Below are positions 1-22,906 of a stretch of DNA of 64,000 nucleotides, in pieces. The DNA is from Giardia intestinalis (Eukaryota). A program made the translations under genes and the position numbers. The stretch's first letter is position 1. Each line of letters starts with the position of its first letter. The stretch lies in NCBI GenBank assembly GCA_000002435.2, contig CM018790.1. One strand, 5' to 3'. The notes under the pieces were generated by a model, which saw nothing but the letters and a program-made list of their open reading frames with translations, had not been told where the DNA came from and made no database searches.

Positions 1-3000
1 AAGCACACTGGATCAAGACAGATTTCGCTTTTGAGTATCTGCCCGCCTCTATTTCGCGGTCTGCAAGTAAATATGCGGTTCTAGCTGCGTCTCCATACTT
101 CTCCATAGCCATGTAAAACTTGAACACATATAGCGGGGGGCGCTTACAGCCATCCAATTCTCCGTTAAGATATTTGAGAATCAGCTCAATAATGGAAACA
201 GATTGCTTACATGATTTAAGCAGATCGAGAGCTTTGTCTATATCTGTCGATCCATCGCCGTAGTGAAGCAAGAGCTTGATAGCCGCCTCATGCTCCCCAA
301 GCAATTCCAGGAAGTGCGCCGCAGCCCTAATGTTTCTAGGAACTTGTAGTGGCTGGGAGGAGGTTTCTGGAGTTTCGTCAAGCGGGCTAATATCCGGGTT
401 ACTGCGTGTGACGGGTGCCGAAAAGTAACGCACCGCCTTTTTCAGAAACTCCTGGGGAGCACGCTCGTTAACAAGGCGAATTAGAATGTCTTCATTACTG
501 GTCTGAATTGCAAGGTCAAATGCCTCATCGAATGCTCCACTCAGCACTCCGAAAAATATAGCCTTCTTTATGTTACCAGCTGTCCGGTGATAGAGGGAAA
601 GGCTTGCTGAGGATCCTTTGAGCTCTGCCTCCAACTCATACACCGCCAAAGTAGTACGCTCCCCAGCGTGCGCCTTTTCGAGGAGAAGCTTTGTCTCTTT
701 AACGGCTGACTCTGCTTCGGAGATCTTTCCTAGTGCAATCAGACAATCCACAATTTCACGACTCTGACCAGCGCGCTTGAAAAGAACCAGAGCCTTATCC
801 GGATCGTCTTTCATGTAAACTCTCGCCAAGTCTGCGACAATATTCATATCGGTAACATTGTCTATAAGCCGCTCTGCCTCACCGTACTGCCGTGACTTGA
901 TATAGCAGCCGACTGCTCGAGATAAAAGCAGCGGTGGGTCTATTTCTTTCAGATCCTTTTCTTGCACGATGTCCTGTATGCTAGTGGGGAGAAGCTCTGA
1001 GAGAAGCTTCTTAGTTGCTTCTACGTTAAGCACCGCATCTATCTCTTTAACTATGGAGATATCAATACCTGAGCTATCACCAGAGGCTGTCTGTGAAAGC
1101 GCAGAGTTTGCTATCGTTGTTAGGAGAGATGGAATGAGAGCAAAGAGAAGGAGAGGCTTGGTCCCCCCAGTACCTTGGATACCAGATCCACCGCCCCTAT
1201 TCCCGCCAACACGAATCATGTTAGTGTCTGTAGAATTATATATGTATGCATAGATGTTTAGCTCGCCACTAAGAAGGCCTGCTATCTCCTTTCTGAGCCT
1301 TGAGTAACACGCCTCTGCTAAGTTAGAGGAGGCTTCCAAAAAGAGAGCAGCTTCCGCAAAGCGCTTCTGCAGACATAGAATGTTTCCGCATTCCATGCAA
1401 AGGCGAGACCGCTGAAGGATATTCAAAGGGTCCTTGACCCTAGGAACAAACCGATTCGTCGCTTCTTTGCGAGGAGGAAGAGCCATTTCCTTCAGGTCTG
1501 AAAGCTTCCCTAACTGCGCGTAACAGCGTGACATGAGGCCTATCAGAAAGGGAATTAGTTTGGGCGGAATGCTGCTCCACATGAAGCGTGCTTCGCCTGA
1601 CTCCTGTCCTTGCTTGCTGTCATCCTTTAGCAAGTTCATGCAGACGTCAAGGCACTCTGGATATTGAAGCCTGTTCTCCAATTCTCCCGCCCACTGTATC
1701 AAGATCTCGCTTCTGACAGCTGTGGACCCTATCCTCGTTGCTAGCATGCTCGCAGTATTCCAATCTAAGCTATCCATACGGAAGGAGAGGGCCACGTTTG
1801 GCTTTCGGGACTTAAGGAGAAACCGCTCCGCTGCACTAAGATAGACGTCTGCCTTGCTCTGTCCCATGGCAAATGCCACGTTGCTACTATTATCTCCAGA
1901 TGCTGGAAGATCAGGGCATGCCATCAGCAGGGAAAGAGCCATAGCTGTGTTATTGTCATATTCGTTGATGCAGATTCTGGATAGAAAAAGGGATAACGCA
2001 GCTGGGTCGTTGCTGTGTGTTGTATTCATTGTGGACAGATTGCGAAGCAGGTCATTAACACCCTGTGCACCCCTAGAATCTAGGAACGTCGTATCCTGAT
2101 AAGTCCCAAGGCTATGCATAACGTGCTCTTCAGTTGTCCCATACAAAGAGAGCTCTCTGTAAGCAGTAAGCGCAGTGCTAAAGTCTGTAATACGAACTGC
2201 CGAATCAGCTACGTACTTCATCACATCTGTGTTGCCAGAAACGGACGCAAGGATAAATGCTAGCTTCGTGTGGCCGATAGTTCCTAACTCCACTGCTGCT
2301 TTTTCGTATTCTTGCAACAGCCCTGCCGCTTTGAGCGATCGATACTTAGGGAAAAGACCAGATATTTTGAACGGAACGGAATTGAACTCCTGACCAGTGT
2401 ATTGAAGCAAGCTATCCTGCAGAGGTGCCAGGTAGCTATAATAAGACATAAATAAGTCATCTTTTTGTGAAGTGTTGTCCTCGATATCATCACCCTTCAG
2501 CAGGAGAGGACGTGGGGCTCCAAATGATGCCGAATTGTCGTAGAACGCTAGGCATGTTGCAAAGCTTTGAAGCCCACTAATATAGTCGCGCTGGCGAAGT
2601 TCTGCTCCGTCCAAAACAAATCCCATGCCCCCTGCAACTATCGTTGGTAACGTTGTACTGGAAGATGTAGCAACAGAGGCTTTTACAGCTAATATCCCAT
2701 AGCCTTCTTGCTCTGGTAGCGAATGGTGAAGCACGCAAACATAGGAATTAGCTGGCAGACAGTCGCTTCCAATCTTTGTACAAGTCGTTATAACGAACGT
2801 ATTTGCCAACAATGAGTCAAAGGTAATATCATAAATACACTCAGGCTCCTCTTTGAAAAGCAGTGAGACAGATTCAAAACTATCGTTCGAAGCTTCTTCA
2901 GATAGAATGCGTGAGTATCGCGCATCGTTTATCAAAATTCCTTCAGCAGGAAGATAAAAACACGGCCGAATTTTTGCACCAGTTCGATATATTGCGCAAA

Positions 3001-5083
3001 TTGTGCCACCAGGACTAAGCTTAATTGTTACGTTTGCATCCGTGCCTCTTCTTAAAACAACATTGTCTGTGAATTCATCTGGAAGCTGCTGGGCAGCAAC
3101 TTTAACAAAGTTTAGTTTCCCATCGTCTTCGTAAATGGAGTACACAACCAGCATCCCTCCGAAGGTAATGCCGTAAACAAAGGGAGAACAACAGGCGCAT
3201 ACTTGAAACTTGAGGCTCTCCACGTCAGAAAGTATTAGACTTGGACAGGAACCAACGATCACCTCCAACGTACCTTCCTGTGCAAGAGACACGATGCAAA
3301 TCGACCCTGTTTCCAGTGTCATAATGTCGAATCTGGTTGGCTTGGTTGTGGGTTCTGCCGTGTGCCAAGATAGTTCAGGATTGAGTTGTGCCGGGTCAGA
3401 GCCGATTAAAATAAGCTTTGAATACCTTATTTTGCTATTAGATAAATAGCCAATTGCCCCGTCAGAAACTGCAAATTGAGATGGTTCACCATTCAGGTCA
3501 ATAAGAGTCGAGAGCTTGTATGCCTTTGGAGGAGCCATGGGATTTGCCAACACAAAGCTGAGGGATGCCACACTAGGGCTGGCCAATGAGAGACAGAAGA
3601 CCACACCTTTTTTGTGATCAAACACGGAGGCCTCGCTAACAGATTGATCAAGGTAGCATACGTCTGGTGGGTTCAGTGGAACACTAACTTGCCAGAGTAC
3701 CACATTAGTTGTCAGCATTACAGTCACAACACCGTTGGAAAACGCAACGGCACAAAGACCTCTATTAAAAAGACTATGGGAAATATTAACAGGATAACCA
3801 GTTATGCCCGGAAATGTGGGGTTTTTGCCGAAAAGGAGGTAGGGGGTTTCCTGGGTAGGATTGTGGAGATTAACTACCGAGAAGCCTCGTTCCACCGGGA
3901 GAACAAGCTTGTCTCCCGTACCTAGGACGGAAAGAAATCCAATTCCGTGGCACGTGCTCACTCCCTTCATTATATATTCGGTGAGGCTGTTTATTCCATT
4001 TGCATTGTCCTGGAGCCCCACCTGATCGTTCATCTCTTCAATGTAACCATTGTACGTTCCAGTTGATCCTGAAACGGATAACTTAATAGCGTTTCGTTGC
4101 CACATGATGGCTCCAAACCTTGTCACGTGTGCATCTGTTGATAGATTAAATCCTACTTTAGATCTGTCTAGTGAAACGCGAAGTATCAACGCATTAGAAA
4201 ATAGTACAAAAATCGAGGGAGGAATAGAGGCAGTTCGTGGACAGTACACCATATCAATTAACGTGTCTGCCCCCACATCTGGTAGATTGAGAATCGCACA
4301 GCCATCTATGCCGTTGACTACCGCAGTGAATAAATTCTTGCTATCCAATGTCTCTGCAGACCACATCTCTGGCACGGTGGAGATAATGATGAGTTTGTAT
4401 CCGGGTTCATATGATACCTGCGAGTCTGAGTGACTTTTTTTCATGATAGAGGGATGGAAGAAGGCTGGGACTGCAACCGCATCTATGCACTCATTGGTAT
4501 CTATAAGAATTTCTATTGGAAGAAGCTTGCCCAGAAAGAGACAGCCAAGAGCCTTTTGCTTTAAGGTGGCCTGAGTGTTTCCATCACTGTCAGATACTAT
4601 CAGACTCTCTGCAGACAAGGAAATGATCCGGTGGGTAGAAATAGTATGACAAACGGAAACCAACCTGCGAACATGCTTGGTCATTTGGGGGACACGCTTG
4701 GTAGTGTGCGGGTCATACGTAAAAATATGCCCCTGGCCGGTACCAATTACCAGTTGTCGCTCTAGCGTATTCCATGATAAACACGTTGGATCTGTAACGT
4801 CTAGCATCAGCTTGATTAAGCTTTTCTGAGATGAGGACCATATTCTCACTAGCTGTGAGCCAGAGCATAGTACAGCGAAGTATGCTCCATTGGGTGACCA
4901 CATCACGTCCAGAATAGTGGAGTTTTCAGTCGGGATCTTGTCCACTAGAGCCCCATCCTTCGTATAAAAAGTAACTTGGGTCCGTGCGGCAACGGCCAGT
5001 ATGTCATCCCTTGGTGACCACGACAGCATCACTGGCCGATTACCATGTCTATCTCCTTTGATCTGAAATTTAAGATGCATCAC
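1..5083 (-). CDS. IFT172: Intraflagellar transport protein 172 (IFT172)-like WD40 + TPR/alpha-solenoid protein, partial. The ATG is at 5081-5083, and the C-terminus lies beyond the window start.
   Basis: The minus-strand frame is open from the ATG at 5083 to position 1, because no ORF ending at 5083 appears in the track. So at least 1694 aa are visible. The N-terminus reads MHLKFQIKGDRHGNRPVMLSWSPRDDILAVAARTQVTFYTKDGALVDK..., which aligns with the human IFT172 N-terminus as I remember it ([53 protein letters not shown]). WD-repeat beta-strand patterns are followed by helical TPR-like sequence. Only IFT172 among the IFT WD/TPR proteins reaches this size. Confidence 0.55.
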   Translation of the reverse strand, partial: MMHLKFQIKGDRHGNRPVMLSWSPRDDILAVAARTQVTFYTKDGALVDKIPTENSTILDVMWSPNGAYFAVLCSGSQLVRIWSSSQKSLIKLMLDVTDPTCLSWNTLERQLVIGTGQGHIFTYDPHTTKRVPQMTKHVRRLVSVCHTISTHRIISLSAESLIVSDSDGNTQATLKQKALGCLFLGKLLPIEILIDTNECIDAVAVPAFFHPSIMKKSHSDSQVSYEPGYKLIIISTVPEMWSAETLDSKNLFTAVVNGIDGCAILNLPDVGADTLIDMVYCPRTASIPPSIFVLFSNALILRVSLDRSKVGFNLSTDAHVTRFGAIMWQRNAIKLSVSGSTGTYNGYIEEMNDQVGLQDNANGINSLTEYIMKGVSTCHGIGFLSVLGTGDKLVLPVERGFSVVNLHNPTQETPYLLFGKNPTFPGITGYPVNISHSLFNRGLCAVAFSNGVVTVMLTTNVVLWQVSVPLNPPDVCYLDQSVSEASVFDHKKGVVFCLSLASPSVASLSFVLANPMAPPKAYKLSTLIDLNGEPSQFAVSDGAIGYLSNSKIRYSKLILIGSDPAQLNPELSWHTAEPTTKPTRFDIMTLETGSICIVSLAQEGTLEVIVGSCPSLILSDVESLKFQVCACCSPFVYGITFGGMLVVYSIYEDDGKLNFVKVAAQQLPDEFTDNVVLRRGTDANVTIKLSPGGTICAIYRTGAKIRPCFYLPAEGILINDARYSRILSEEASNDSFESVSLLFKEEPECIYDITFDSLLANTFVITTCTKIGSDCLPANSYVCVLHHSLPEQEGYGILAVKASVATSSSTTLPTIVAGGMGFVLDGAELRQRDYISGLQSFATCLAFYDNSASFGAPRPLLLKGDDIEDNTSQKDDLFMSYYSYLAPLQDSLLQYTGQEFNSVPFKISGLFPKYRSLKAAGLLQEYEKAAVELGTIGHTKLAFILASVSGNTDVMKYVADSAVRITDFSTALTAYRELSLYGTTEEHVMHSLGTYQDTTFLDSRGAQGVNDLLRNLSTMNTTHSNDPAALSLFLSRICINEYDNNTAMALSLLMACPDLPASGDNSSNVAFAMGQSKADVYLSAAERFLLKSRKPNVALSFRMDSLDWNTASMLATRIGSTAVRSEILIQWAGELENRLQYPECLDVCMNLLKDDSKQGQESGEARFMWSSIPPKLIPFLIGLMSRCYAQLGKLSDLKEMALPPRKEATNRFVPRVKDPLNILQRSRLCMECGNILCLQKRFAEAALFLEASSNLAEACYSRLRKEIAGLLSGELNIYAYIYNSTDTNMIRVGGNRGGGSGIQGTGGTKPLLLFALIPSLLTTIANSALSQTASGDSSGIDISIVKEIDAVLNVEATKKLLSELLPTSIQDIVQEKDLKEIDPPLLLSRAVGCYIKSRQYGEAERLIDNVTDMNIVADLARVYMKDDPDKALVLFKRAGQSREIVDCLIALGKISEAESAVKETKLLLEKAHAGERTTLAVYELEAELKGSSASLSLYHRTAGNIKKAIFFGVLSGAFDEAFDLAIQTSNEDILIRLVNERAPQEFLKKAVRYFSAPVTRSNPDISPLDETPETSSQPLQVPRNIRAAAHFLELLGEHEAAIKLLLHYGDGSTDIDKALDLLKSCKQSVSIIELILKYLNGELDGCKRPPLYVFKFYMAMEKYGDAARTAYLLADREIEAGRYSKAKSVLIQCA

Positions 5084-5187
5084 GAAGGGGCCAATTAATT
5101 TTTGGCCATTTACTCTGCTTCACCGAGGCTGGTTTGCCAGCTGCTATCCGAGCAAGTCTCACGCGAACTACCACTCCAAGCAAAGCC

Positions 5188-5212
5188 CAAGATCCAGAAT
5201 CTGAAAGTCGGA
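5188..5212 (+). repeat. 20-bp motif GATCCAGAATC(T/C)GAAA, copy 1.
   Basis: The sequence aagatccagaatctgaaagtcggattcc recurs at 22885-22906 in direct orientation and at 21775-21800 in reverse orientation (gatttcggattctggatctc). Confidence 0.6.
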
Positions 5213-5294
5213 TTCCATCCAGCTCTGGTGAGAAAAGAAGACTTTATTTTCATCTCCCTAGGAGCTGTTGCTATTCCTCCCAGCGCCTTCTAAG

Positions 5295-5445
5295 ACTTCC
5301 TCTTCCTCCGACCAGTTATGGGCAGCCAGGACTCAGTTCGCCTCTGCCAGCCAAGCACCCCAAGTCCTATTTCTTGTCGAGGGATTCACATGGGTCACGT
5401 GTGGGTCCGTCTGGACAGGCGGGGCGAGTGATTAGTGCCATCACT
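5295..5445 (-). repeat. Short dispersed repeat element of about 150 bp, copy A, in reverse orientation. The outer palindrome boundary falls inside it.
   Basis: The reverse complement of 5340-5445 reads ggcactaatcactcgccccgcctgtccagacggacccacacgtgacccatgtgaatccctcgacaag...ggctggcagaggcg, which is shared with 20925-21014 and 22997-23100. The outer 45 bp (5295-5340) is a diverged match to 23100-23140. Confidence 0.7.
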
Positions 5446-8400
5446 GGCTTCAAGCTCTCCGTTGCTCTGGGAGCTCCTTGAGACCGGCCAGGAAGGAGGC
5501 CTCCTGCCCCTCAGTGCTCTTACACCCAATGTTGACCGTCGAGCATAGCGCTTCGCTAGGTCTGTCGCCTCTGTGACTACCCTGTCGCGTCACTGTCATC
5601 GGCATGGGCAGTGAGTGGAGTATCTCCTTCAGCTCCTGGTGAGCAGGTTCTGTACCACGCAGTATGGGGGCATGCGCAGGGCCCCGAGGGACCGAGTCCA
5701 GGAGTGCAGCGCGTCCCAGCCGGAGGAAGGCCTCGACGCAGCTCCTCGGGACGGGGCACACTTGCCTGGGAGAGGCCGTCTGCTGTTGGGGCTCTCGTTA
5801 TGTCGAGCGAGGCCGCCGTGCCCATCAGCTTGTGTCTCCCTGTGCCATGCGAACACCACCCATGTGCAATCGGTGGAACGCAGTCTGCTCTGTCTCGAGG
5901 AAGGCCAGTGTCTGGGTCTCCAGGGGGCTCGGGACTGCCTTGTGGAGCGCATCATGATCGTCCCCTGATCGTGGTTGTCCTGTCTCGTTCTTGGGAAGAG
6001 GGCAGAACAAAAGTTCTTCTCCCGTCGGAGTCGCTTGGCACTTGAGTTCGAACTTTGGGTTTTGATCTTGGCCAATGCAGGGATGAGGGAGACCTGCTTC
6101 CCCAGAGCGGCGGTGGCTTGCATGGGAAGATCACTCAGATAGCAGGTGACAGCCCCACCCCGGCTAAAAAACTTGAGGCAGCCGTCGCGCCCGCCGCCCC
6201 CAGGACAGAGATTCTGCGTGCATGGCCAGCTGCCCTTGTCAGTTCGGTCTACTGGTCCGGTAGTCTGAGGACCTTCTGCGCCGCTTCTGATGTATGATGC
6301 ATCGCAACTGCTTATAGGGGTAAGCAGCATGAAAAGGCAATTGCATGTGTGGACATTGTACTATGACCGTCTCAGAGGGCCGAAGTCTCCAACTACAGAG
6401 CGCTGCACCGAGCAACACGCCCCACTGCCCTGCGCCGGTGGCTGCCTCCACCACCGTCTTCGTTGCACTTGGGCTGTGCCTGCCCAGCAGACTGAGCAGA
6501 GATTACAGAAGCTTCTCTAATAATGCACACACGCCGCATAAGGTCTGATGATGGAATGGACACCACCTGTCTGAGCTGTCTGCTATTGACGAGAGACAGC
6601 CCTTGGTTGCACTAGAGTGCTTTTGTTTAAGCATAAGGTCTTCGCACCTACTCCCCCATCAGCTATAGCGATAGCTGTATATCCAGAAGGGTCCTGCAGA
6701 GCGTTCCACCGTCTTTCAAGGTAAGGCATGGGCTCCATACCTATAGCTAAAAACAGAAATCCGTGCACCAAGTGTCACGAGTCTAGTATACTGACCGACC
6801 TGAATCGCAGTGCACTTGTCAAGGACCTGTGCACACGTTTGGATGCTCACTGCTAGTGGTAGACGGGCTTGTAAGGAAAATTGCTTCTGGTCGCGCTTGC
6901 CTTATAGTGTTTGATCCTGGGTGGCATGCCTCAGCAAAGGAAGATGCTATTTATATGCATAGAAGGCTATCCATGCACAGTGATTCCTGGAAAGCCGGTT
7001 CGCACGGAGAGGGTAGAGGCCATCAGCAAACCAGTGAGATACACCTGACGCTAGAGAGGCCAGCTACCGGCTCAGATTGCAGTGGTGACACTTGTAGTGC
7101 CCCTCTGACTTCTAAGCATGGAAACGTCACGGGGTCTGTGGGCAAACCGGACGCTCTTTTTGATTTTATACGTTTGTAGCAACGTAGTATTTATTGGGGT
7201 CTGCTTCGTCTGGAGTCGAGGAGGCTCGCTTTCTCTCCACATACAGATTAAGATCGATTGTAGGGGTATACTGTGCAGATCAGTACCAGTCAGTGTGGTC
7301 TCTGTCCACAGGTACCTCACTTGCGTCTTCCCGTGGCAGACATTCACCAACAACACCTCCGGCCTGTGTGGTGTTCTACAGTGTACCTTCACCTTCGACC
7401 AAGGGGCTGGTACACACGTTACGTAATTTAGATTGCTCATCAGTCAGGGTGGTATGGTCCGCTCTTGTTCTCCACTTGCATATCTCGTATAACCTGCTGA
7501 TAGCCTTTCCAGATTAGTATGCAGATGCTTCTATCGGTCCTGTAAGGCATGCGTCATGTAGGTAACCATTACAGGCCAGAGTCCTGTCTGCTAAGGAAAA
7601 GAACCACCAGTTTACCATGTGGACATCCGTTGTGCTCTCCAGTATCTCCTCGCCAGCCGCCATCTAGTTCTCCCTGCCGTTTGGAGCCCGTATGTATATT
7701 GTTACTGACAAGCACTTGGTTTCAATGGGCCCCTGGGACGTTAAGCACTTTACCCTGTGCAGTGGGTATGTTCAATGTGGGAGATACACAATCAGCATTG
7801 ACTTTCTCACTCATTGTTTGTGTAATTATTGTTGCTTCTTAGTCTAATTAGCAACCCAGATCATGGCCTCCAGTGTAGTGGTATTCTACCAACAGACAGC
7901 TGGCAGTGACTGTGGCACGTACTTTCATCAAGACACAGCCACCTGAGCAGGGGTATGAAATGGGTCCTTGTTATTCTACGATTCTGCTAATTCCTCAGAT
8001 AGCAGGGATCAGAGCAGCTTATTGTTAGTATTGACTATCTCCGTGTCTCCATTTATCTTCGTCGCTTGAGATACGCTTGACTCCAAAGACTCGAAAAGGT
8101 GCTATACTGTGCTCAGATCTGCGAGTCTCAATTAAGTAAGGCTACCATCTCGGTGGCTGCGCTGAGGTAGCTACACACCTTGTGGGCTCTGCAAGGTGCA
8201 TTACAGCCCAATGGAACCCTTACCTATCGAATGCAGGCCGCAATGCAGCCTCGCTGGTGCACGATTTCTTAAGATGACTGATCAATCCGCAGAGTCCACC
8301 CTACTCATGTAGAGCCAGCGATAGATGACGATATCAACCCTGTAGATAATCTACACTGTACATCAGTGGTCCTATAGGTAAGTAAGGGTCAGCCATCCCG

Positions 8401-9916
8401 CAGTAATGAGCATTAGCGGTGTCTTTCCCAAGAATAAATGGGCGAGTTGTCAGCAGTCACAACATCCGCTTTCTCAATGAAGACCGCCCTGCCACTGAGG
8501 CCCAGGCCAGTCTCCTATAAGATCCTTGACAAGATTGTATCCAAGATGTATATCTATGGTGCTCCCCGACTCAAGGTGTATGCTGCTGAACCTCCCATTT
8601 CTCGTATCAGCTTATGAATATCGATGTCCCTGCCTCTAGCAGAATTGTATTAGAAATAATATGAGATATGGCGCCTTCAGTCGGGTTGTTCGGATTCCCA
8701 GCTGCACAACGGGGGCCCACTTTCGTATTGTGCATCAGAAAGACATGTCATGCCGTAATGATGCAACCTTTCGTATGGTATAATTCTTGCGTCAAGAGAT
8801 AGGGCACTTGTATCGATCGGCATATCTACCCATGGCCAGTTATAGCTTGGACCAAAGGTCACAAACGAACGCTATCTAACTCCCTTATCAACAGACGGGA
8901 GATCTGACCATCCTTCTGCCTCACACAAAGCCACAAAGGATTCTAGATCAGGATTTCGGCCAGTAGCTGGCAAGTCATTATACTCTCCTGGATTTCTGCT
9001 CCCTCTACTATAGGTATCCACATGTAGGAAGCTCTGAGGGCCTAAAGTCCTACACCAATAGGCTCAGGGTACTGCAAACCCAGGTGTTTTCACTAGTGGT
9101 GGTAGTGATGGTCTCAAGATGATCCAGAAGGGATGACAGGAGTCCTGGTCAATCAACTTAGAAGGTGGCACGGCTTGGTCAGTGATTCTCCTTGTCCAGA
9201 TGCGGGACTGCTTGTCTGCGCCTTCTAAGCTTCACATGGCATCCCGTCATGCGATAGGATATCTTAATAATATTCATTAAAAAAGGCCAGAAATGACACA
9301 CTGTACATCCAACAGACTGCTGCACCTTATTATCTAATCTTTGCCGGTTCACACCTTCCACAAACCCCAGTGGTTGCTGCGATCTTCTCTTAGGATCTCG
9401 TAGGGGTCTTTCATTAAGGGAGGCTCCCCTGTGACGACCAGAGGTCGCAGACATAATCCAAAGGGATGCGAATGCTACGGAGGCGGAGAGAAGGTCATCG
9501 GCGCACGGGGGTCCGCAGGGGCCCGACCCGTCCAGGGAAAGCACAGGGAGCTGGCTTATCAGAGACGCAAAGACGCCAGGAGAAAAGCCAGCAACGAACC
9601 CACGGCACAGTGGAGGCACTCGAGCCGTCCTTTGATTGGCCGCAGGGCAGAGAGGCGGCAAGCGTGTGGAGAGGTCTCACCACTTATTTTTGGATTTTCT
9701 GTTTCCCTGCGTGTTGTGCAGGGAGCATGGGGTTCAGACCCAGGGAGCTCGCGTGGGCTGTATGCAGTAGATGTGCTTAGTATTCGATGAGCTTCTATGC
9801 CCTAAGCAGAGGTATCGTAGAAGACGAATCTCTTTGGATTAATTAGCATAGTGTAGTCAGGTCTTTAGTCTTAAGTATCTTATTCTTACTTATACGACAA
9901 GCTGAGAAGGACCTCA

Positions 9917-11803
9917 ATGTTGCTGGTAGTTTTCTACTTTGTGCTGAGTGCTCTTGCGGGAGCATGTACTGTTGAGGCTAACACACGAGATTGTACAGAG
10001 AATAAGTGCGAAATGGTTGGCGAAACAGAAATCTGTACACAATGCAAGACGGGCGGAAATGTTCCCATTGATGGAGTGTGTAAGGCGGTTGCTGAGGCCG
10101 CCAATAAGTGTACGAAGAGCGATGACAATCCGGTAGGCGCAGGAGATACGACTTGTGGAAAATGCGTAAACGCATACTTCATGTACAAAGGCGGATGTTA
10201 TCTGGCCGGTGCAGCTGGACCGGGTACTGGTACTAAAATGTGCAAGCAGGCTGCTGGTGGCAAGTGTACGCAAGCTGCTGATGCGAAGAACTACTTCATT
10301 CCACCAGCAAATACAGACGATACTCATGATTCTGTCGTTTGGTGCGGTGATGAAATAGGCGTAACACTTAGTAGTACTCAGTATAAGGGTGTTGCTAAGT
10401 GCCTAGTATGTGATGCTCCCGGTGGGGCTGGTGCTGCAACGTGCACAACCTGTGAAGACGGGTACTTTGGTGCTACTTGTAAAAAATGCCATGAAAGTTG
10501 TAGGACATGTGAAGCTGCAGAAGAGAATAAGTGCAAGTCGTGTACAGATGGCTACTTCCTTGGAGCAACCAATGGAGCCGCAGGTAAGTGCCTTAAGTGT
10601 AACTCTAAAACAGAGGAAGGCTGGCACGGAGTTGACAACTGTGCTAAGTGCACGTCATCTAATACGCAAAACACCCCTGCGACATGCACTGAATGCGTTG
10701 CAAATTTCTATCTAAAACCAGCCGCGGGTGCAACTCCTTCTAGTTGCGTCACAGAAACGGGGTGCGGTGACGGATACTTCCCAACTATTGTTGATGAGAT
10801 CAAGAAATGTATCGCTTGCGGTACAGCTGCAAATGGTGGCATAGATGACTGCAAAAAGTGTTCTCTCAAAACAACGTCTGCGAAGGCAGGAATAGAGATC
10901 GTATGCACTGAATGTAATACTAAATGGCTCAGTCCTCTAGGAGACGCATGTTTGGATAGCTGTCCTCCTGGAACACATGCTGATTCTGGCAATATTTGTC
11001 CTTTATGTCATAGCACATGTGCAGAGTGTGATGGCAATGCAGAAGCCACATCGTGCAGAGCATGTTATCCCGGATTTGTGCTGAGTTATGGCAGCGATAA
11101 AGTCAGAGGCACATGTATTCAAGAATGTACCGGCAAATACGCAGAAAATTGTGAAGAAAATATGTGTACGGCTGTCCTTGGAGGCTCCAAGTATTGTAGC
11201 AAGTGTAAGGCCGGATTCGTTCCAATAGATGGTGTCTGTGTATCGACAGCTTCACGAGCAGTAACCGGATGTACGCCAGGAAATGGAGTATGCATTGCAT
11301 GTACAGACTCATACTTCTTACAGTCTGGAGGATGCTATCAGTCGACAGTGTTTCCTGGTAATAAGCTGTGTACACTAGCTAGTAATGGAAAGTGTACAGC
11401 ATGCTCCAACGGGCAAACAGCAGATGGTCAAGGTTCGTGCCCAGCGTGTAATGCCATCTGTGCAACATGTGCGGCAGGAAATATAGACCAATGCCAAACT
11501 TGCTTCCCTGGATACTATAAATCCGGAACTAAGTGCGTAAAATGTAGCATTACTGACAACGGAATAACTGGTGTAGAGAACTGCATAAGCTGTGCCCCTC
11601 CAGCTGGTAATAGTGGTCCTGTCACTTGCTATATGAAGACAGATGACACTAACGATGGTGGTAACGACAACAACGGCGGAAGCACGAACAAGAGCGGGCT
11701 CTCCACAGGGGCCATCGCGGGGATCTCCGTGGCTGTGATTGTTGTTGTAGGTGGTCTCATAGGCTTCTTGTGTTGGTGGTTCATATGTAGAGGGAAGGCG
11801 TAA
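9917..11803 (+). CDS. vsp: Variant-specific surface protein (VSP), 628 aa, copy 1.
   Basis: The ATG is at 9917. The product has an N-terminal signal peptide (MLLVVFYFVLSALAGA), many CXXC motifs, GGCY motifs (KGGCYLAG, QSGGCYQS), and a single C-terminal transmembrane helix (AIAGISVAVIVVVGGLIGFLCWWFI). It ends in the invariant Giardia VSP tail CRGKA, and the stop codon TAA is embedded in ACTTAGGTAGTAAAC. Confidence 0.92.
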   Translation: MLLVVFYFVLSALAGACTVEANTRDCTENKCEMVGETEICTQCKTGGNVPIDGVCKAVAEAANKCTKSDDNPVGAGDTTCGKCVNAYFMYKGGCYLAGAAGPGTGTKMCKQAAGGKCTQAADAKNYFIPPANTDDTHDSVVWCGDEIGVTLSSTQYKGVAKCLVCDAPGGAGAATCTTCEDGYFGATCKKCHESCRTCEAAEENKCKSCTDGYFLGATNGAAGKCLKCNSKTEEGWHGVDNCAKCTSSNTQNTPATCTECVANFYLKPAAGATPSSCVTETGCGDGYFPTIVDEIKKCIACGTAANGGIDDCKKCSLKTTSAKAGIEIVCTECNTKWLSPLGDACLDSCPPGTHADSGNICPLCHSTCAECDGNAEATSCRACYPGFVLSYGSDKVRGTCIQECTGKYAENCEENMCTAVLGGSKYCSKCKAGFVPIDGVCVSTASRAVTGCTPGNGVCIACTDSYFLQSGGCYQSTVFPGNKLCTLASNGKCTACSNGQTADGQGSCPACNAICATCAAGNIDQCQTCFPGYYKSGTKCVKCSITDNGITGVENCISCAPPAGNSGPVTCYMKTDDTNDGGNDNNGGSTNKSGLSTGAIAGISVAVIVVVGGLIGFLCWWFICRGKA

Positions 11804-11817
11804 CTTAGGTAGTAAAC
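11803..11817 (+). promoter_or_regulatory. VSP-type extended polyadenylation signal ACTTAGGTAGTAAAC overlapping the stop codon.
   Basis: The sequence acttaggtagtaaac begins at the last base of the TAA stop. It matches the vsp extended poly(A) signal consensus as I recall it (ACTYAGRTAGTRAAY), and it contains the general Giardia AGTRAAY poly(A) motif. Confidence 0.6.
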
Positions 11818-14536
11818 GCGTTACTTTATGTAACCTATGTAGATGTGCTGCTGGGGCTATCTGAGCGCGGTCCAGAGATCGTGTGGGTAATCATCGCTCC
11901 TTCCTGACCAGTCCAGAGACGATGGCTGGTTGTGAATAATATAACGAGAGAATCCTCTCCAGTGATACCTCCAGAGCCTGGTGCATTCCTCAATCATTTC
12001 GTGGGCGTGTGCTCAGACCGAATGCGTACATCGGTCCTTTAGGGGTTCAGGCCCTCTTGCAGACTCTCTGATCCGCCGGCGCCTCTCCTTGGTCTGCCGC
12101 CTTGGTGGATGAGGCTTGGGTCGCTGTCTTTTTTAGATGCCCCCATCTGTCAGAGGGCTGCCCTCGGGCTCTCTTCTGGCCGCCCCTCGGTGTCCGTCCG
12201 GCTGTGGCCCGGGCAGTGCTTCTACAGTCGCGGTCACTTGGGTATCAGCGGGCCAGCTGGTGGGCGAGGCGGGGTTGGTGAGGCTGGAGGGGACTGGTGG
12301 GGGCTGAGGTGGGCGGTGTTGTATGCGCCCCTGACCTCTTGGTGAGTGGGGTGATCGCAGCTGTTATGACTGGGGGCTGTCCATCTGTGACTCATCCCTC
12401 TGTGTGCTCGTGGTCTGTGAGTGCCTCCACCCAGACAACCCTCAGGAGCCGGAGAGTGGTGCCAGCCTAGCTGTCCTCCCTCCTCGGTGCCTCCCAGTGC
12501 AGACTCACCGGAGGCCACTACCCTGTCAGCCACCCGAAGGAGCCGTGCACGCCGGGACAGAGAGAGTGACCAAGGGGAGTCAAGCAGCCCTGCCATGAGA
12601 GTGCACAGCAACCAGCCTGGACTGTATGGGCTGCTCGAACAGTGGTAGTGGCAGACGACTCCCTCTGACAGCAGCCCTGATGACGGCACTGGCCTGCTCT
12701 TGAGACTGAATGACAGTGAACACAGACGGACATGAGCGCAGGAGGACCATCCACACACGAACAGACTGTGTGGACCCAGAGAGGACTAGGGTCTGCTCAG
12801 ACACACGCTGACTGTGCCCCATACGAGAGTACCAGGCAACCACCCGAGCACCCGAGAGGCAGGTACAGCCACGGGCACTAGAGATCCCCAGCCAGACACA
12901 TTGCCATGCTCATCCACAGGGGCATCAGAGGGCCAGGTGGGGTCACTCTCACAATCAGGGGCCTGATAGGAAGCCAGAGGACCCGAGCAGCACAGCACAG
13001 CAGGCCCAAGGGAGGCACACTCCAGGCAGGTGAGCAGTGGCAGAGCCTTGACAGCTGCCAGCCCCCCATGACACCCAGGCAGGCACCAGACTCCGAAGAC
13101 TCGCTGGCCTCCACCTATGACCCGAGAGGGCAGCAACCAGAGGAGCGAGGAGGCCTTCGGATGACACAAGAGGCCGGCTGTCCAGCGGGCGATGGAGCAC
13201 AGGTGGCCTCTGAGCACCATAAGGCACAGGACTGACCATCAGAGTGATGCCCGGTCACAGAGACGACCACGAGCACCCTCCACCCACTCTGAGGGGCTGT
13301 CGATCATTCACTGCCTCTCATAGCAGACCTCCTTAAGGGCAGTGCAGTGGGTCCCAGCTCATGCAGGAGGGTGCACACCCCTCAGTATAGGACACCCCGA
13401 CTCTCCCCGAGGGGTCATCAGAGCCATGAGAGGTGTCAAGGTCCTGATAGATCACACCGGGAACCCCTCGAATGGGCACAGCAGGTGAGGTATGGGTGAC
13501 CCCAGCGTGCTCCTCTCTGCATGGTAGAGCATCCTGAGACCAAGGGGGTCACCTCTGCCTACGGATAATACACAGCACTCCATGACAAGGACCCACCAGG
13601 AGCAGCACAGCTGACCACGGGGACAGTGCAGTCACCAGTGCCCCACCGTGCCAGTCTTCTGGGCCATCACACTAGAGGCACGAGAGAACCCCATCCCATC
13701 CACCGGCTCATCTATGCCCCTGCTGGCCCGAGGTGAACTAACCTTGTCGAGGCACTGGACAGGGCATGCCAGGGGGCCCAGCAGACCCGCACAGAGCAAC
13801 AGGAGGGGCTGCGATGGCCTGCCTCACCCTTCACGCACCAGCCAGACAGAGCAGCAGTACTGCCTGAGACATGCAGGGGCTAAGGGAGGCGCTCAGTCGG
13901 GGGACACGACACGATCGTCGGTGCCTCTGTCTCGGGAGTGCAACGCAGGCTGGTGATCAGACACAACCACCTTAGCAAACAGAGCGGGGATCACCCACCA
14001 CCGCAATGACCCACCGGACCCAGGGGCGCATACAACACCGCCCACCTCAGCCCCCACCAGTCCCCTCCAGCCTCACCAACCCCGCCTCGCCCACCAGCTG
14101 GCCCGCTGATACCCAAGTGACCGCGACTGTAGAAGCACTGCCCGGGCCACAGCCGGACGGACACCGAGGGGCGGCCAGAAGAGAGCCCGAGGGCAGCCCT
14201 CTGACAGATGGGGGCATCTAAAAAAGACAGCGACCCAAGCCTCATCCACCAAGGCGGCAGACCAAGGAGAGGCGCCGGCGGATCAGAGAGTCTGCAAGAG
14301 GGCCTGAACCCCTAAAGGACCGATGTACGCATTCGGTCTGAGCACACGCCCACGAAATGATTGAGGAATGCACCAGGCTCTGGAGGTATCACTGGAGAGG
14401 ATTCTCTCGTTATATTATTCACAACCAGCCATCGTCTCTGGACTGGTCAGGAAGGAGCGATGATTACCCACACGATCTCTGGACCGCGCTCAGATAGCCC
14501 CAGCAGCACATCTACATAGGTTACATAAAGTAACGC

Positions 14537-14551
14537 GTTTACTACCTAAGT
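14537..14551 (-). promoter_or_regulatory. VSP-type extended polyadenylation signal of VSP copy 2, the mirror image of 11803-11817.
   Basis: It is the reverse complement of the same 15-mer, located at the 3' end of the minus-strand VSP. Confidence 0.6.
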
Positions 14552-16437
14552 TACGCCTTCCCTCTACATATGAACCACCAACACAAGAAGCCTATGAGAC
14601 CACCTACAACAACAATCACAGCCACGGAGATCCCCGCGATGGCCCCTGTGGAGAGCCCGCTCTTGTTCGTGCTTCCGCCGTTGTTGTCGTTACCACCATC
14701 GTTAGTGTCATCTGTCTTCATATAGCAAGTGACAGGACCACTATTACCAGCTGGAGGGGCACAGCTTATGCAGTTCTCTACACCAGTTATTCCGTTGTCA
14801 GTAATGCTACATTTTACGCACTTAGTTCCGGATTTATAGTATCCAGGGAAGCAAGTTTGGCATTGGTCTATATTTCCTGCCGCACATGTTGCACAGATGG
14901 CATTACACGCTGGGCACGAACCTTGACCATCTGCTGTTTGCCCGTTGGAGCATGCTGTACACTTTCCATTACTAGCTAGTGTACACAGCTTATTACCAGG
15001 AAACACTGTCGACTGATAGCATCCTCCAGACTGTAAGAAGTATGAGTCTGTACATGCAATGCATACTCCATTTCCTGGCGTACATCCGGTTACTGCTCGT
15101 GAAGCTGTCGATACACAGACACCATCTATTGGAACGAATCCGGCCTTACACTTGCTACAATACTTGGAGCCTCCAAGGACAGCCGTACACATATTTTCTT
15201 CACAATTTTCTGCGTATTTGCCGGTACATTCTTGAATACATGTGCCTCTGACTTTATCGCTGCCATAACTCAGCACAAATCCGGGATAACATGCTCTGCA
15301 CGATGTGGCTTCTGCATTGCCATCACACTCTGCACATGTGCTATGACATAAAGGACAAATATTGCCAGAATCAGCATGTGTTCCAGGAGGACAGCTATCC
15401 AAACATGCGTCTCCTAGAGGACTGAGCCATTTAGTATTACATTCAGTGCATACGATCTCTATTCCTGCCTTCGCAGACGTTGTTTTGAGAGAACACTTTT
15501 TGCAGTCATCTATGCCACCATTTGCAGCTGTACCGCAAGCGATACATTTCTTGATCTCATCAACAATAGTTGGGAAGTATCCGTCACCGCACCCCGTTTC
15601 TGTGACGCAACTAGAAGGAGTTGCACCCGCGGCTGGTTTTAGATAGAAATTTGCAACGCATTCAGTGCATGTCGCAGGGGTGTTTTGCGTATTAGATGAC
15701 GTGCACTTAGCACAGTTGTCAACTCCGTGCCAGCCTTCCTCTGTTTTAGAGTTACACTTAAGGCACTTACCTGCGGCTCCATTGGTTGCTCCAAGGAAGT
15801 AGCCATCTGTACACGACTTGCACTTATTCTCTTCTGCAGCTTCACATGTCCTACAACTTTCATGGCATTTTTTACAAGTAGCACCAAAGTACCCGTCTTC
15901 ACAGGTTGTGCACGTTGCAGCACCAGCCCCACCGGGAGCATCACATACTAGGCACTTAGCAACACCCTTATACTGAGTACTACTAAGTGTTACGCCTATT
16001 TCATCACCGCACCAAACGACAGAATCATGAGTATCGTCTGTATTTGCTGGTGGAATGAAGTAGTTCTTCGCATCAGCAGCTTGCGTACACTTGCCACCAG
16101 CAGCCTGCTTGCACATTTTAGTACCAGTACCCGGTCCAGCTGCACCGGCCAGATAACATCCGCCTTTGTACATGAAGTATGCGTTTACGCATTTTCCACA
16201 AGTCGTATCTCCTGCGCCTACCGGATTGTCATCGCTCTTCGTACACTTATTGGCGGCCTCAGCAACCGCCTTACACACTCCATCAATGGGAACATTTCCG
16301 CCCGTCTTGCATTGTGTACAGATTTCTGTTTCGCCAACCATTTCGCACTTATTCTCTGTACAATCTCGTGTGTTAGCCTCAACAGTACATGCTCCCGCAA
16401 GAGCACTCAGCACAAAGTAGAAAACTACCAGCAACAT
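14551..16437 (-). CDS. vsp: Variant-specific surface protein (VSP), 628 aa, copy 2. Its amino-acid sequence is identical to copy 1, and the two genes converge.
   Basis: It is the mirror image of 9917..11803 within the palindrome. The translation is 100% identical, including the CRGKA terminus. Confidence 0.92.
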   Translation of the reverse strand: MLLVVFYFVLSALAGACTVEANTRDCTENKCEMVGETEICTQCKTGGNVPIDGVCKAVAEAANKCTKSDDNPVGAGDTTCGKCVNAYFMYKGGCYLAGAAGPGTGTKMCKQAAGGKCTQAADAKNYFIPPANTDDTHDSVVWCGDEIGVTLSSTQYKGVAKCLVCDAPGGAGAATCTTCEDGYFGATCKKCHESCRTCEAAEENKCKSCTDGYFLGATNGAAGKCLKCNSKTEEGWHGVDNCAKCTSSNTQNTPATCTECVANFYLKPAAGATPSSCVTETGCGDGYFPTIVDEIKKCIACGTAANGGIDDCKKCSLKTTSAKAGIEIVCTECNTKWLSPLGDACLDSCPPGTHADSGNICPLCHSTCAECDGNAEATSCRACYPGFVLSYGSDKVRGTCIQECTGKYAENCEENMCTAVLGGSKYCSKCKAGFVPIDGVCVSTASRAVTGCTPGNGVCIACTDSYFLQSGGCYQSTVFPGNKLCTLASNGKCTACSNGQTADGQGSCPACNAICATCAAGNIDQCQTCFPGYYKSGTKCVKCSITDNGITGVENCISCAPPAGNSGPVTCYMKTDDTNDGGNDNNGGSTNKSGLSTGAIAGISVAVIVVVGGLIGFLCWWFICRGKA

Positions 16438-19400: not shown

Positions 19401-20924
19401 TAAATAGCATCTTCCTTTGCTGAGGCATGCCACCCAGGATCAAACACTATAAGGCAAGCGCGACCAGAAGCAATTTTCCTTACAAGCCCGTCTACCACTA
19501 GCAGTGAGCATCCAAACGTGTGCACAGGTCCTTGACAAGTGCACTGCGATTCAGGTCGGTCAGTATACTAGACTCGTGACACTTGGTGCACGGATTTCTG
19601 TTTTTAGCTATAGGTATGGAGCCCATGCCTTACCTTGAAAGACGGTGGAACGCTCTGCAGGACCCTTCTGGATATACAGCTATCGCTATAGCTGATGGGG
19701 GAGTAGGTGCGAAGACCTTATGCTTAAACAAAAGCACTCTAGTGCAACCAAGGGCTGTCTCTCGTCAATAGCAGACAGCTCAGACAGGTGGTGTCCATTC
19801 CATCATCAGACCTTATGCGGCGTGTGTGCATTATTAGAGAAGCTTCTGTAATCTCTGCTCAGTCTGCTGGGCAGGCACAGCCCAAGTGCAACGAAGACGG
19901 TGGTGGAGGCAGCCACCGGCGCAGGGCAGTGGGGCGTGTTGCTCGGTGCAGCGCTCTGTAGTTGGAGACTTCGGCCCTCTGAGACGGTCATAGTACAATG
20001 TCCACACATGCAATTGCCTTTTCATGCTGCTTACCCCTATAAGCAGTTGCGATGCATCATACATCAGAAGCGGCGCAGAAGGTCCTCAGACTACCGGACC
20101 AGTAGACCGAACTGACAAGGGCAGCTGGCCATGCACGCAGAATCTCTGTCCTGGGGGCGGCGGGCGCGACGGCTGCCTCAAGTTTTTTAGCCGGGGTGGG
20201 GCTGTCACCTGCTATCTGAGTGATCTTCCCATGCAAGCTACCGCCGCTCTGGGGAAGCAGGTCTCCCTCATCCCTGCATTGGCCAAGATCAAAACCCAAA
20301 GTTCGAACTCAAGTGCCAAGCGACTCCGACGGGAGAAGAACTTTTGTTCTGCCCTCTTCCCAAGAACGAGACAGGACAACCACGATCAGGGGACGATCAT
20401 GATGCGCTCCACAAGGCAGTCCCGAGCCCCCTGGAGACCCAGACACTGGCCTTCCTCGAGACAGAGCAGACTGCGTTCCACCGATTGCACATGGGTGGTG
20501 TTCGCATGGCACAGGGAGACACAAGCTGATGGGTACAGCGGTCTTGCTCGACATAACGAGAGCCCCAACAGCAGACGGCCTCTCCCAGGCAAGTGTGCCC
20601 CGTCCCGAGGAGCTGCGTCGAGGCCTTCCTCCGGCTGGGACGCGCTGCACTCCTGGACTCGGTCCCTCGGGGCCCTGCGCATGCCCCCATACTGCGTGGT
20701 ACAGAACCTGCTCACCAGGAGCTGAAGGAGATACTCCACTCACTGCCCATGCCGATGACAGTGACGCGACAGGGTAGTCACAGAGGCGACAGACCTAGCG
20801 AAGCGCTATGCTCGACGGTCAACATTGGGTGTAAGAGCACTGAGGGGCAGGAGGCCTCCTTCCTGGCCGGTCTCAAGGAGCTCCCAGAGCAACGGAGAGC
20901 TTGAAGCCAGTGATGGCACTAATC

Positions 20925-21063
20925 ACTCGCCCCGCCTGTCCAGACGGACCCACACGTGACCCATGTGAATCCCTCGACAAGAAATAGGACTTGGGGTGCT
21001 TGGCTGGCAGAGGCGGACTGATCCTAACCGCACCGAAGAGTGGAGGCCTGGACCACCTGCCGG
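20925..21063 (+). repeat. Short dispersed repeat element, copy B, at the right outer boundary of the palindrome.
   Basis: ggcactaatcactcgcc...ggcagaggcggactgatcctaaccgcaccgaagagtggaggcctggaccacctgccggg matches 22997-23150 along its whole length with scattered mismatches. The match continues about 50 bp beyond the point where palindrome identity ends at 21014. Confidence 0.75.
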
Positions 21064-21774: not shown

Positions 21775-21800
21775 ATCTCAGATTTCGGATTCTGGATCTC
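21775..21800 (-). repeat. 20-bp motif GAGATCCAGAATCCGAAATC, copy 2, in reverse orientation, just 3' of the ankyrin gene.
   Basis: atctcagatttcggattctggatctc is the reverse complement of the motif at 22885-22906. Confidence 0.6.
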
Positions 21801-21832
21801 AACCGATGCAGGGACGGGAGGTACTTGTTTGT

Positions 21833-22591: not shown

Positions 22592-22884
22592 TTTTACTGC
22601 GGGTCACATAGAGCTCGTGTGTCAGTACGCCTGCAATTCCTGGGCCTCTTGCAGCGCATCCAGATGGCGCATCATACAAAGACTGCACCCCTTGAATTCC
22701 TTCCGTCGCCCCTGCTATGTGTAGCAAGGTGCAATGGAGTGACCTTCGGCCGTGGCGTCAGGCACGCTGTGAACAGAAGAGTTCATTCTGCTTCCTCTGG
22801 TTGGTTTGTCAGCTGTTGCCTGAACAGGTCCTCCATGCGAGCCGCCGCCGCCCCAGGCTGGCAGTCTCTCGCTCGCTCACCAGC

Positions 22885-22906
22885 CGAGATCCAGAATCCG
22901 AAATCA
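22885..22906 (+). repeat. 20-bp motif GAGATCCAGAATCCGAAATC, copy 3, lying 90 bp upstream of dispersed element C.
   Basis: gagatccagaatccgaaatcag is present here. Confidence 0.6.

Follow-up and report, generated by a model that had tools for sequence, protein, structure and literature searches.

Differences between the arms of a 15.7-kb VSP palindrome in Giardia intestinalis WB lie at its outer ends: a possible case of position-dependent gene conversion

VSP switching underlies antigenic variation in Giardia intestinalis, a major human parasite. The first identical inverted VSP pair described in G. intestinalis WB was vsp1267. Fourteen identical inverted pairs have been listed in WB, and the other five inverted pairs consist of unrelated genes, not of decayed duplicates (Adam et al., 2010; PMC2996952). 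Nineteen duplicated WB VSP pairs have been tabulated by Xu et al. (2020; PMC7000408), and seven identical pairs are known from G. muris (PMC7641422). No identical VSP genes occur in WB outside the inverted arrangement (PMC2996952; PMC7000408), and in 12 of 12 convergent WB pairs the ORFs stand 2,526-2,813 nt apart. Published accounts treat the WB pairs at the level of the gene, attribute them to recent duplication and label identical inverted pairs 'cryptic'. In mammals, the sex-chromosome palindromes (human Y P1-P8 and the X palindromes) are kept by gene conversion between their arms, and no outer-edge gradient is described in the sections of those accounts that were searched (PMC3723533; PMC8600007; PMC8981503).

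The window analyzed here is a 64,000-nt stretch of the WB genome (contig CM018790.1), in which the vsp126 region was found, by ungapped mirror comparison (position i paired with 26354-i), to form a 15.7-kb palindrome. Arm 1 (5333-12333, plus strand) and arm 2 (14021-21021, minus strand) are each 7,001 nt long and enclose a unique spacer of 1,687 nt (12334-14020; 59-64% G+C). Arm 1 consists of a 4.6-kb upstream region, VSP copy 1 and 530 nt of 3' flank. The arms are 99.914% identical, with six mismatches in 7,001 nt (0.086% divergence). Both inner boundaries and the outer boundary are sharp; no convincing decayed homology was detected beyond the arm boundaries, the ends of the spacer included. 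The spacer had no match in Pfam or Rfam, and an Rfam scan of the whole window returned no families. Repeats internal to the spacer are short and unremarkable. Relative to earlier descriptions, the 7,001-nt arm length (with 4.6 kb upstream of the gene), the mismatch map, the distinction of parental and derived arms and the cross-assemblage comparison are new.

The palindrome belongs to an 18-kb block that has been inserted with a conserved housekeeping gene on either side. The left flank holds a conserved WD40/IFT-like gene (1-5080, minus strand) that runs off the window; it showed 85% amino acid identity to a 1,971-aa assemblage B protein by tblastn, and its first in-frame ATG and the outer edge of arm 1 are about 250 nt apart. 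The right flank holds the gene for ankyrin repeat protein 1 (21833-22591, minus strand), of which a paralogue with 91% amino acid identity is present on the 4.0-Mb WB chromosome. A third, diverged copy of the outermost 120-160 nt of the arm (22994-23153, plus strand; about 85% identity) extends 43 nt beyond the arm 2 boundary. The outer junction at 5333 is novel: homology is lost there in arm 1, and the junction with the left flank carries microhomology of a few bases. Arm 2 is joined to the right flank in outgroups too, and its homology runs on past 21021 into sequence common to the third copy and to another locus (L008). Because this outgroup sequence aligns across 21021, arm 2 is the original and arm 1 its inverted copy.

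VSP copy 1 (vsp126; GL50803_d11521 or GL50803_11521) occupies 9917-11803 on the plus strand and encodes 628 aa with a match to Pfam PF03302 (E = 1.8e-91); its C-terminal end, ...FICRGKA, carries the VSP hallmark CRGKA. VSP copy 2 (14551-16437, minus strand) has an identical 628-aa translation and is convergent with copy 1 (tail-to-tail). The protein matches KAE8301981/KAE8301982 and XP_001705557 exactly. The ORFs are separated by 2,747-2,748 nt and identity stops 530 nt past the stop codon. This is the published tail-to-tail identical pair vsp126.1/126.2 (GL50803_d11521/11521), and its spacing and divergence point agree with the tabulated values (Table 5 in Adam et al., 2010, PMC2996952; Table 2 in Xu et al., 2020, PMC7000408). 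Another pair, of 627 aa, is located on the 4.0-Mb chromosome, and its VSP shows 81% identity to vsp126. The mismatches are spanned by a 233-aa ORF (5629-6330, minus strand; mirror 20024-20725), which probably is not a gene. It has no Pfam match, its only homologues in a protein search were two metagenomic ORFs, and its sole record is an old UniParc entry of the arm 1 version; the arm 2 version was found nowhere else. The two VSPs and the ankyrin gene have consecutive accession numbers, which implies that no gene stands between them in the 2020 annotation. A protein search with 13 concatenated arm ORFs found no relatives, and exact look-up of both versions of the ORFs overlapping the mismatches gave no match.

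Exactly six positions differ between the arms (5338, 5809, 5812, 5817, 5820, and 6115), all by transitions. They lie 6, 477, 480, 485, 488, and 783 nt from the outer edge, so that every difference falls in the outer 783 nt, or 11% of the arm length. Over the inner 6,218 nt (6116-12333), both 628-aa VSP genes included, the arms are 100% identical. An earlier note, made from the same DNA, had placed the differences at the distal arm ends and had taken all mirror ORFs inward of about 6300, the VSPs among them, to be identical, and the mirror comparison bears out both statements. The differences it had quoted for four ORF pairs were reproduced (H171Y/G172S, E67K/A68T, R49Q/G50D/R52C/A53T, and P7L). 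Its interval for the differing positions, 5577-6297, holds for the ORFs and misses the mismatch at 5338/21016, which lies outside the ORFs compared. Counting non-ORF positions did not spread the differences evenly along the arms; no further mismatches exist.

The direction of each change was assigned from related sequences (bases are given as arm 1/reverse-complemented arm 2). The outermost site, 5338 (T/C; paired with 21016), lies 6 nt away from where the duplication is joined; both L008 and the third copy carry the arm 2 state there, and T is derived. Four substitutions fall within 12 nt at 5809-5820 (paired with 20534-20545): 5809 G/A, 5812 G/A, 5817 C/T, and 5820 G/A. At each of them L008 agrees with arm 1, which makes the bases of arm 2 the derived ones, by GC-to-AT change. 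At the innermost site, 6115 (G/A; paired with 20239), L007 has G and A is derived. Arm 2 thus carries five derived GC-to-AT changes within 307 nt, four of them C-to-T on one strand, and arm 1 carries one derived change. Compensatory changes in a hairpin were considered by sequence inspection and rejected: 5812 and 5817 could pair, 5809 and 5820 cannot. The sites can serve to tell the arms apart: the outer junction offers one such marker (5338/21016) and 5809-6115 another five (mirror 20239-20545), which could be used for phasing reads and for following conversion in culture.

The strength of the clustering depends on how many events the sites represent. Treated as independent, the six sites give p = 2e-6. 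With four of them in one 12-nt cluster and another 6 nt from the junction, only two or three independent events are represented, and the appropriate p is about 0.001-0.03 and not 2e-6. With the junction site, the 12-nt cluster and the single site counted as three events, p is 1.4e-3 one-sided and 2.8e-3 two-sided; two events, with the junction-adjacent site left out, give 0.0125 and 0.025. Weighting by G+C targets or removing the VSP coding sequence shifts p less than threefold. The clustering is moreover a post hoc observation. The profile is a step (six mismatches in 783 nt vs. none in 6,218 nt) that rests on two or three events, and at this locus a slope, a step, an edge effect, a single long conversion tract, a single local mutation burst and a younger outer repeat layer are indistinguishable.

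The explanation we tentatively place first, and which could well be wrong, is that arm-to-arm conversion keeps the arms identical while the outermost several hundred bases are converted less often. Arm 1 is an inverted copy of arm 2, joined to the left flank at 5333 via microhomology. Intrachromosomal recombination between the arms (gene conversion) would then hold them identical, as in other large palindromes, with the outermost several hundred bases falling in conversion tracts less often, either because tracts require homology on both sides or because they begin further in and fade outwards. New mutations would persist longest near the outer edge, and the survivors would be the C-to-T change at the junction in arm 1 and, in arm 2, the four-base cluster and the single base, all GC-to-AT. 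Beyond the observed anatomy, mismatch map, polarity of the changes and parental arm, we infer from the sequences that conversion operates at this locus and that its efficiency depends on position. The earlier note had proposed gene conversion between the arms, with a gradient produced by initiation near the center. The first part is plausible and has indirect comparative support; the second is not borne out by a step resting on two or three events, and the spacer has no notable internal repeats, Rfam family or Pfam domain that would mark an initiation site at the center.

Several observations count against position-dependent conversion. There are only two or three events, and the five changes that share an arm and a 307-nt stretch may go back to one or two local events. 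From a symmetric edge effect some differences would be expected at the inner edge also; there are none, an asymmetry that is not significant with so few events. The sharp boundaries and the surviving junction microhomology fit a young duplication. Under simple tract truncation, calculated from the standard model, conversion would fall no more than about twofold at an edge, whereas the observed ratio is above 8-16. Past the outermost ~1.5 kb, the arms have a G+C content of 45-53%, below the 59-64% of the spacer, and GC-biased conversion has left no visible mark. That all surviving differences are GC-to-AT would fit new mutations that escaped correction and is no demonstration of bias.

Other Giardia lineages provide evidence for homogenization that is suggestive, not decisive. 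The many identical inverted VSP pairs of WB, where no other arrangement yields an identical pair, and the seven pairs of G. muris likewise lend it indirect support. Assemblage E (P15) has, at the syntenic site beside the 101918 gene, homologous sequence that forms a near-perfect inverted repeat of its own. Of each arm, 1,753 nt or more are visible, with three mismatches, and the outer end is cut by the contig end. The P15 arms share only 64% identity with the interior of the WB arm, and the repeat has a different center, with a single VSP in the spacer. Identity that is high within a genome and low between genomes was counted for homogenization. A P15 VSP entered twice in UniRef was considered as an identical pair and set aside, the copies not being on one contig. 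In assemblage B there is no insertion at the palindrome site, and the WD40/IFT-like gene adjoins the 101918 gene. Two contigs from two metagenomes (L019 and L020), representing another Giardia lineage, are homologous to WB 7166-12139; they share a start base and end 511 and 555 nt past the VSP stop codon, compared with 530 nt for the WB inner boundary. Coverage in the same assembly was 60 for L019 and 28 for L008, about a twofold ratio, and the counterpart of WB 5375-6003 lies on a half-coverage contig that continues into the flank. The outer boundary in that lineage seems to differ from the one in WB. L007 is more likely collinear with the arm than inverted. Its outer part is closer to a segment downstream of the ankyrin gene than the WB arm is. 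Flank divergence is 0-0.02% among WB-like isolates and 1.1-2.2% between WB and assemblage AII-like sequences; the arm divergence of 0.086% is above the former range and far under the latter. The short-read contigs of other isolates end at about 23060-23170 and the assemblage AII (DH) contig at 21710, all 0.4-2 kb outside arm 2.

A possible though somewhat unlikely alternative is that the location of the differences is due to chance, the arm 2 changes reflecting one or two local mutation events, with or without conversion. Cytosines deaminated in a burst while the DNA was exposed as a single strand would be one example and a polymerase error affecting several bases another, and the change at 5338 would have been introduced by mistake as the junction formed. 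If effectively just one or two events postdate the duplication, their position is uninformative about a gradient. This agrees with the makeup of the arm 2 changes, four of which fall in 12 nt while the fifth is 295 nt off, every one being GC-to-AT and four of five C-to-T on one strand, and with a sixth change 6 nt from a microhomology junction; the two-event p is just 0.0125-0.03 for a post hoc observation. It is nevertheless somewhat unlikely that two events would both fall in the outer 11%, and the cluster combines G-to-A and C-to-T on one strand, which is not the pattern of a clean strand-coordinated burst.

We consider it unlikely that the palindrome is simply a young inverted duplication without ongoing conversion, possibly built in two layers. 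In the two-layer version, the outer ~1.8 kb (5333-7166) would be older or separately copied, and the remainder would have been copied or re-copied later in one long event such as break-induced replication. Recent duplication is how Adam et al. (2010; PMC2996952) explain the pairs, and the sharp boundaries and the junction microhomology agree with it. The layers would account for the start of the two-copy contig of the other lineage at the equivalent of WB 7166 and for the half coverage of the equivalent of WB 5375-6003, and every WB mismatch is inside the proposed outer layer; 6116-7166, however, belongs to that layer and has no differences. A young duplication would also require independent inverted duplications of one sequence in WB, P15 and the third lineage. 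Given the different center in P15 and the apparently different outer boundary in the other lineage, the duplications may be independent. It would further leave unexplained why divergence of intermediate degree is absent from Adam's 19 inverted pairs (14 identical, five unrelated).

Rather doubtful is a broader proposal, in which Giardia VSP palindromes are old, conserved structures kept identical by conversion from a shared central module of ~2.5-2.8 kb and fading outwards. The module could consist of 3' flank, spacer and 3' flank; the spacing of convergent pairs in 12 of 12 cases and the inner boundary common to another lineage could be cited for it. Such a module would set two identical antigen genes in convergent orientation, which could provide input to the double-stranded-RNA pathway by which VSPs have been proposed to be silenced.

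Ectopic conversion from a third paralogue is improbable. Here the outer end of arm 2, contiguous with the repeated ankyrin-gene flank, would have been patched from a copy elsewhere in the genome, which would leave arm 1 untouched and change arm 2 near its outer end only. The neighboring ankyrin gene does have a paralogue with 91% amino acid identity on another chromosome, the distal block has short diverged repeats in common with the right flank, and four changes packed into 12 nt are what a short patch from a diverged donor typically leaves. Against this, no donor for the arm 2 cluster, GAGCAAGACCGCTGTACCC, was found within the window when up to three mismatches were allowed, and the diverged paralogous segment at 21430-21930 was rejected as donor, since it shares the arm 2 base at just one cluster site out of four. 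Scanning the JGI metagenome collection with a degenerate pattern that spans the cluster gave no match. A consensus artefact or allelic variation, with tetraploid VSP-region variants split unevenly between the arms by long-read consensus, is highly improbable: more allelic variation around VSPs and polishing with Quiver only have been reported (Xu et al., 2020; PMC7000408) and the 233-aa ORF is present in older records in its arm 1 version only, but reads assigned to the wrong copy tend to blur differences between near-identical repeats, the sites 477-783 nt from unique flank are within long-read reach, and the arm 2 changes form a coherent haplotype on one arm.

If identical pairs are actively homogenized, the VSP repertoire would contain units evolving in concert, pair identity would be useless for dating duplications and the conserved center would become a candidate recombination or regulatory element. 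The yield from this single locus is smaller: the differences are real but few.

In comparison with the mammalian sex-chromosome palindromes, vsp126 likewise has inverted arms of >99.9% identity, a unique spacer and members of a multigene family; the far greater identity within a genome than between lineages that marks those palindromes may hold for vsp126 as well. The vsp126 arms are 10-1000 times smaller and lack GC enrichment, palindrome orthology across lineages is only partly established, and conversion at vsp126 is putative. A position effect of the kind considered here is reportedly expected from the 2004 model of Teshima and Innan, in which divergence between copies is higher near the ends of a duplicated block, which fewer tracts cover; that effect concerns both ends and is modest, whereas at vsp126 only the outer end is affected, with a large contrast on two or three events. 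Point mutations close to the breakpoints are a trace of error-prone replicative duplication, whether by template switching or by break-induced replication. The site at 5333 resembles such a product, in that the junction has microhomology and the new copy bears a derived substitution 6 nt off; the five other changes, at 477-783 nt from the edge, belong to the parental arm and so are not errors from copying the new arm. To the identical inverted pairs of Giardia itself vsp126 belongs outright, and it fits all their hallmarks: convergent identical ORFs, the VSP domain with CRGKA, a spacing of 2-4 kb and a divergence point at ~0.5 kb. The vsp126 palindrome is a known structure with a plausible known mechanism.

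Inverted-repeat comparison defined two palindrome arms of 7,001 nt each, arm 1 at 5333-12333 (+) and arm 2 at 14021-21021 (-), with a spacer of 1,687 nt between them. Each arm carries one copy of a variant surface antigen (VSP) gene encoding 628 aa (copy 1, 9917-11803, +; copy 2, 14551-16437, -; Pfam VSP family match, E = 1.8e-91 for both). Both ORFs match exactly the G. intestinalis WB proteins KAE8301981/KAE8301982, encoded on the 1.54-Mb chromosome. Two measurements, the 2,747 nt separating the ORFs and the 530 nt from the stop codon to the parting of the 3′ flanks, identified the pair as vsp126.1/126.2 (Adam et al., 2010, Table 5 and Additional file 1, PMC2996952); it is listed as d11521/11521 by Xu et al., 2020 (Table 2, PMC7000408). 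The inverted pair itself is thus already known. It has been reported that the ORFs of all 12 convergent VSP pairs of WB are 2,526-2,813 nt apart (Xu et al., 2020, Table 2, PMC7000408), the interval here being 11804-14550, and that 3′ divergence points mostly lie at 486-559 nt (Adam et al., 2010, PMC2996952). The uniform spacing suggests a central module common to all tail-to-tail pairs.

Base-by-base comparison of the arms over 7,001 nt revealed six mismatches (0.086% divergence), all of them transitions: 5338 (T in arm 1, C in arm 2), 5809 (G/A), 5812 (G/A), 5817 (C/T), 5820 (G/A), and 6115 (G/A). Measured from the outer edge, these lie at 6, 477, 480, 485, 488, and 783 nt, respectively. No mismatch was detected in the inner 6,218 nt, which include the VSP genes. 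The earlier claim that differences are confined to the distal arm ends was therefore borne out, and every amino-acid difference cited for it was reproduced; 5338 was the only site overlooked. The 233-aa ORF that bears most of these differences matched no family, has next to no homologues, and is probably not a gene.

When the six sites are taken as independent, their clustering at the outer end gives p = 2e-6; that assumption fails, since four sites lie within 12 nt and one is only 6 nt from the junction. Treating the sites as three events gives p = 1.4e-3 one-sided (2.8e-3 two-sided), and treating them as two gives 0.0125 (0.025-0.03); neither weighting by G+C nor leaving out the VSP coding sequence altered these values much. 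The clustering is genuine but built on very few events, and the pattern is a step, with no measurable slope. The earlier note had read it as a polar gradient of conversion initiated near the centre, which a step made by so few events does not establish.

The adjoining sequence indicates which arm came first. On the left is a conserved WD40/IFT-like gene (-) with its first in-frame ATG at 5080, about 250 nt short of arm 1; on the right are a GC-rich block, the gene for an ankyrin-repeat protein (21833-22591), a third, short copy of the end of the arm (22994-23153; about 85% identical, 2,084 nt further out), and gene 101918. In genomes and metagenomes of assemblage B, about 42 nt (from the end of one alignment to the start of the other) separate 101918 from the WD40 gene, so the 18 kb that part these two genes in WB are an insertion. 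By comparison with the flank-gene set (L013-L018, L021, L022), the inserted block is 5110-23275, comprising the palindrome, the GC-rich block and the ankyrin gene; assemblage E has this insertion too, at least in part. Alignments of the third copy and of the metagenomic locus L008 continue beyond arm 2 into the flank on its right, and arm 1 homology ends, following a few microhomologous bases, at 5333; this makes arm 2 the parental and arm 1 the inverted copy. Past the inner boundaries, both abrupt, no convincing decayed homology was found.

At each of the four cluster sites L008 agrees with arm 1, as does a second metagenomic contig (L007) at 6115; arm 2 thus holds five derived GC-to-AT changes within 307 nt. 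At 5338, L008 and the third copy have the arm 2 base. Arm 1 holds one derived C-to-T change, 6 nt from the new junction, which may be an error of junction formation.

Four lines of evidence, each indecisive alone, jointly favour ongoing arm-to-arm conversion as judged from sequence comparison. First, an inverted repeat is present at the syntenic position of P15 (assemblage E), adjoining 101918, with arms of at least 1,753 nt each up to the contig end (L012 14528-16280 and 17346-19098). These arms differ from each other at three positions, one of them 4 nt from the inner edge and the other two close to the contig end; their identity to the homologous WB arm interior (16636-19655) is only 64%. 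The P15 centre is unlike that of WB, with one 235-aa VSP (L012 16552-17259) inside a 1,065-nt spacer; it could derive from a single deletion in a WB-like ancestor or from an independent duplication. In the P15 repeat as a whole (L012 14528-19098) the arms are VSP upstream region, and the layout could permit the VSP segment to invert or could represent a WB-like palindrome minus one VSP copy. Second, two independent human-gut metagenome assemblies (ENA ERZ28528424, ERZ28660572) contain 5.2-kb contigs (L019, L020) of another Giardia lineage, unlike every sequenced isolate compared. Identical to each other in sequence, they are homologous to WB 7166-12139 at 68-69% identity (VSP protein identity 56%), have a common starting base, and run to 511 and 555 nt past the VSP stop, the position of the WB inner boundary. 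Coverage of L019 was 60 vs. 28 for L008, a single control contig from the same assembly. A collapsed two-copy unit with WB's inner boundary would look like this. Third, WB has 14 identical inverted VSP pairs (Adam et al., 2010, PMC2996952) or 19 duplicated pairs (Xu et al., 2020, PMC7000408), and identical VSP genes in no other arrangement (PMC2996952, PMC7000408); Adam's inverted pairs are identical or unrelated, with none of intermediate divergence (PMC2996952), and G. muris has seven identical pairs (PMC7641422). It has been proposed instead that the pairs originate from recent duplication (Adam et al., 2010, PMC2996952). Fourth, the arm divergence falls between flank divergence among WB-like isolates (0-0.02%) and that between WB and assemblage AII-like sequences (1.1-2.2%). 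Homogenisation of the arms by conversion, as the earlier note proposed, is thus plausible with some comparative support; its gradient is not demonstrated.

Four readings are compatible with the outer-end location of the differences. We tentatively prefer, at somewhat below even chances, conversion that would act less well near the outer edge or fade with distance from the centre. In our own calculation with a standard model, simple tract truncation gives an edge effect of only about twofold, expected at both edges, so this reading needs either true polarity or conversion that demands several hundred bases of homology. Rather unlikely is that one or two local events, located there by chance, account for the arm 2 changes. 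A young or layered duplication without conversion, its outer layer having a separate history, is doubtful; in its favour, the two-copy unit of the other lineage begins at the equivalent of 7166, and the equivalent of 5375-6003 is on a half-coverage contig extending into the flank. Improbable is a patch from a third paralogue: the adjoining ankyrin gene has a paralogue of 91% aa identity on another chromosome, but no donor for the arm 2 cluster is present within the window. A consensus or allelic artefact is very improbable, even though older records show the arm 1 haplotype only.

Short diverged repeats connect the arm's distal block with the ankyrin-gene flank, including a 100-nt segment of 68% identity (21746-21843 vs. 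6014-6112) close to the ankyrin stop codon; the region resembles a mosaic of small duplications of older date. L007 (1-1207) first tracks the arm, over the stretch that corresponds to 7042-6075, and then fits the segment downstream of the ankyrin gene (21712-21555) better than the WB arm, which suggests that the WB distal block diverged from, or replaced, ankyrin-flank-like sequence. G+C is 56-64% in 12000-14400 (spacer and inner 3′ flanks), 5200-6400, and 20000-21600 (distal arm block and right flank), and about 47-53% in the non-coding arm DNA beside them; the spacer-side and distal blocks have no detectable mutual similarity and no protein or RNA family match. About 3 kb upstream of the VSP (6699-9718; mirror 16636-19655) contains neither an ORF above 160 aa nor, in the current annotation, a gene, an unusually long non-coding stretch for the compact Giardia genome, still alignable with P15 (64%) and the metagenomic lineage (69%). 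A tandem array of a 36-nt unit (33630-34337; about 20 copies, mostly 98-100% identical) falls within a 1,471-aa ORF (31027-35442, -).

The locus belongs to the identical inverted VSP pairs, a class already described: every defining feature was checked and found here. Sex-chromosome palindromes are kept by arm-to-arm conversion (PMC3723533, PMC8600007, PMC8981503), and the vsp126 palindrome would be similar in mechanism. Like them, it has near-identical arms; unlike palindromes so kept, it has no visible signature of GC-biased conversion, since arm G+C is not above spacer G+C. Its place in the class maintained by arm-to-arm conversion is only partly established.
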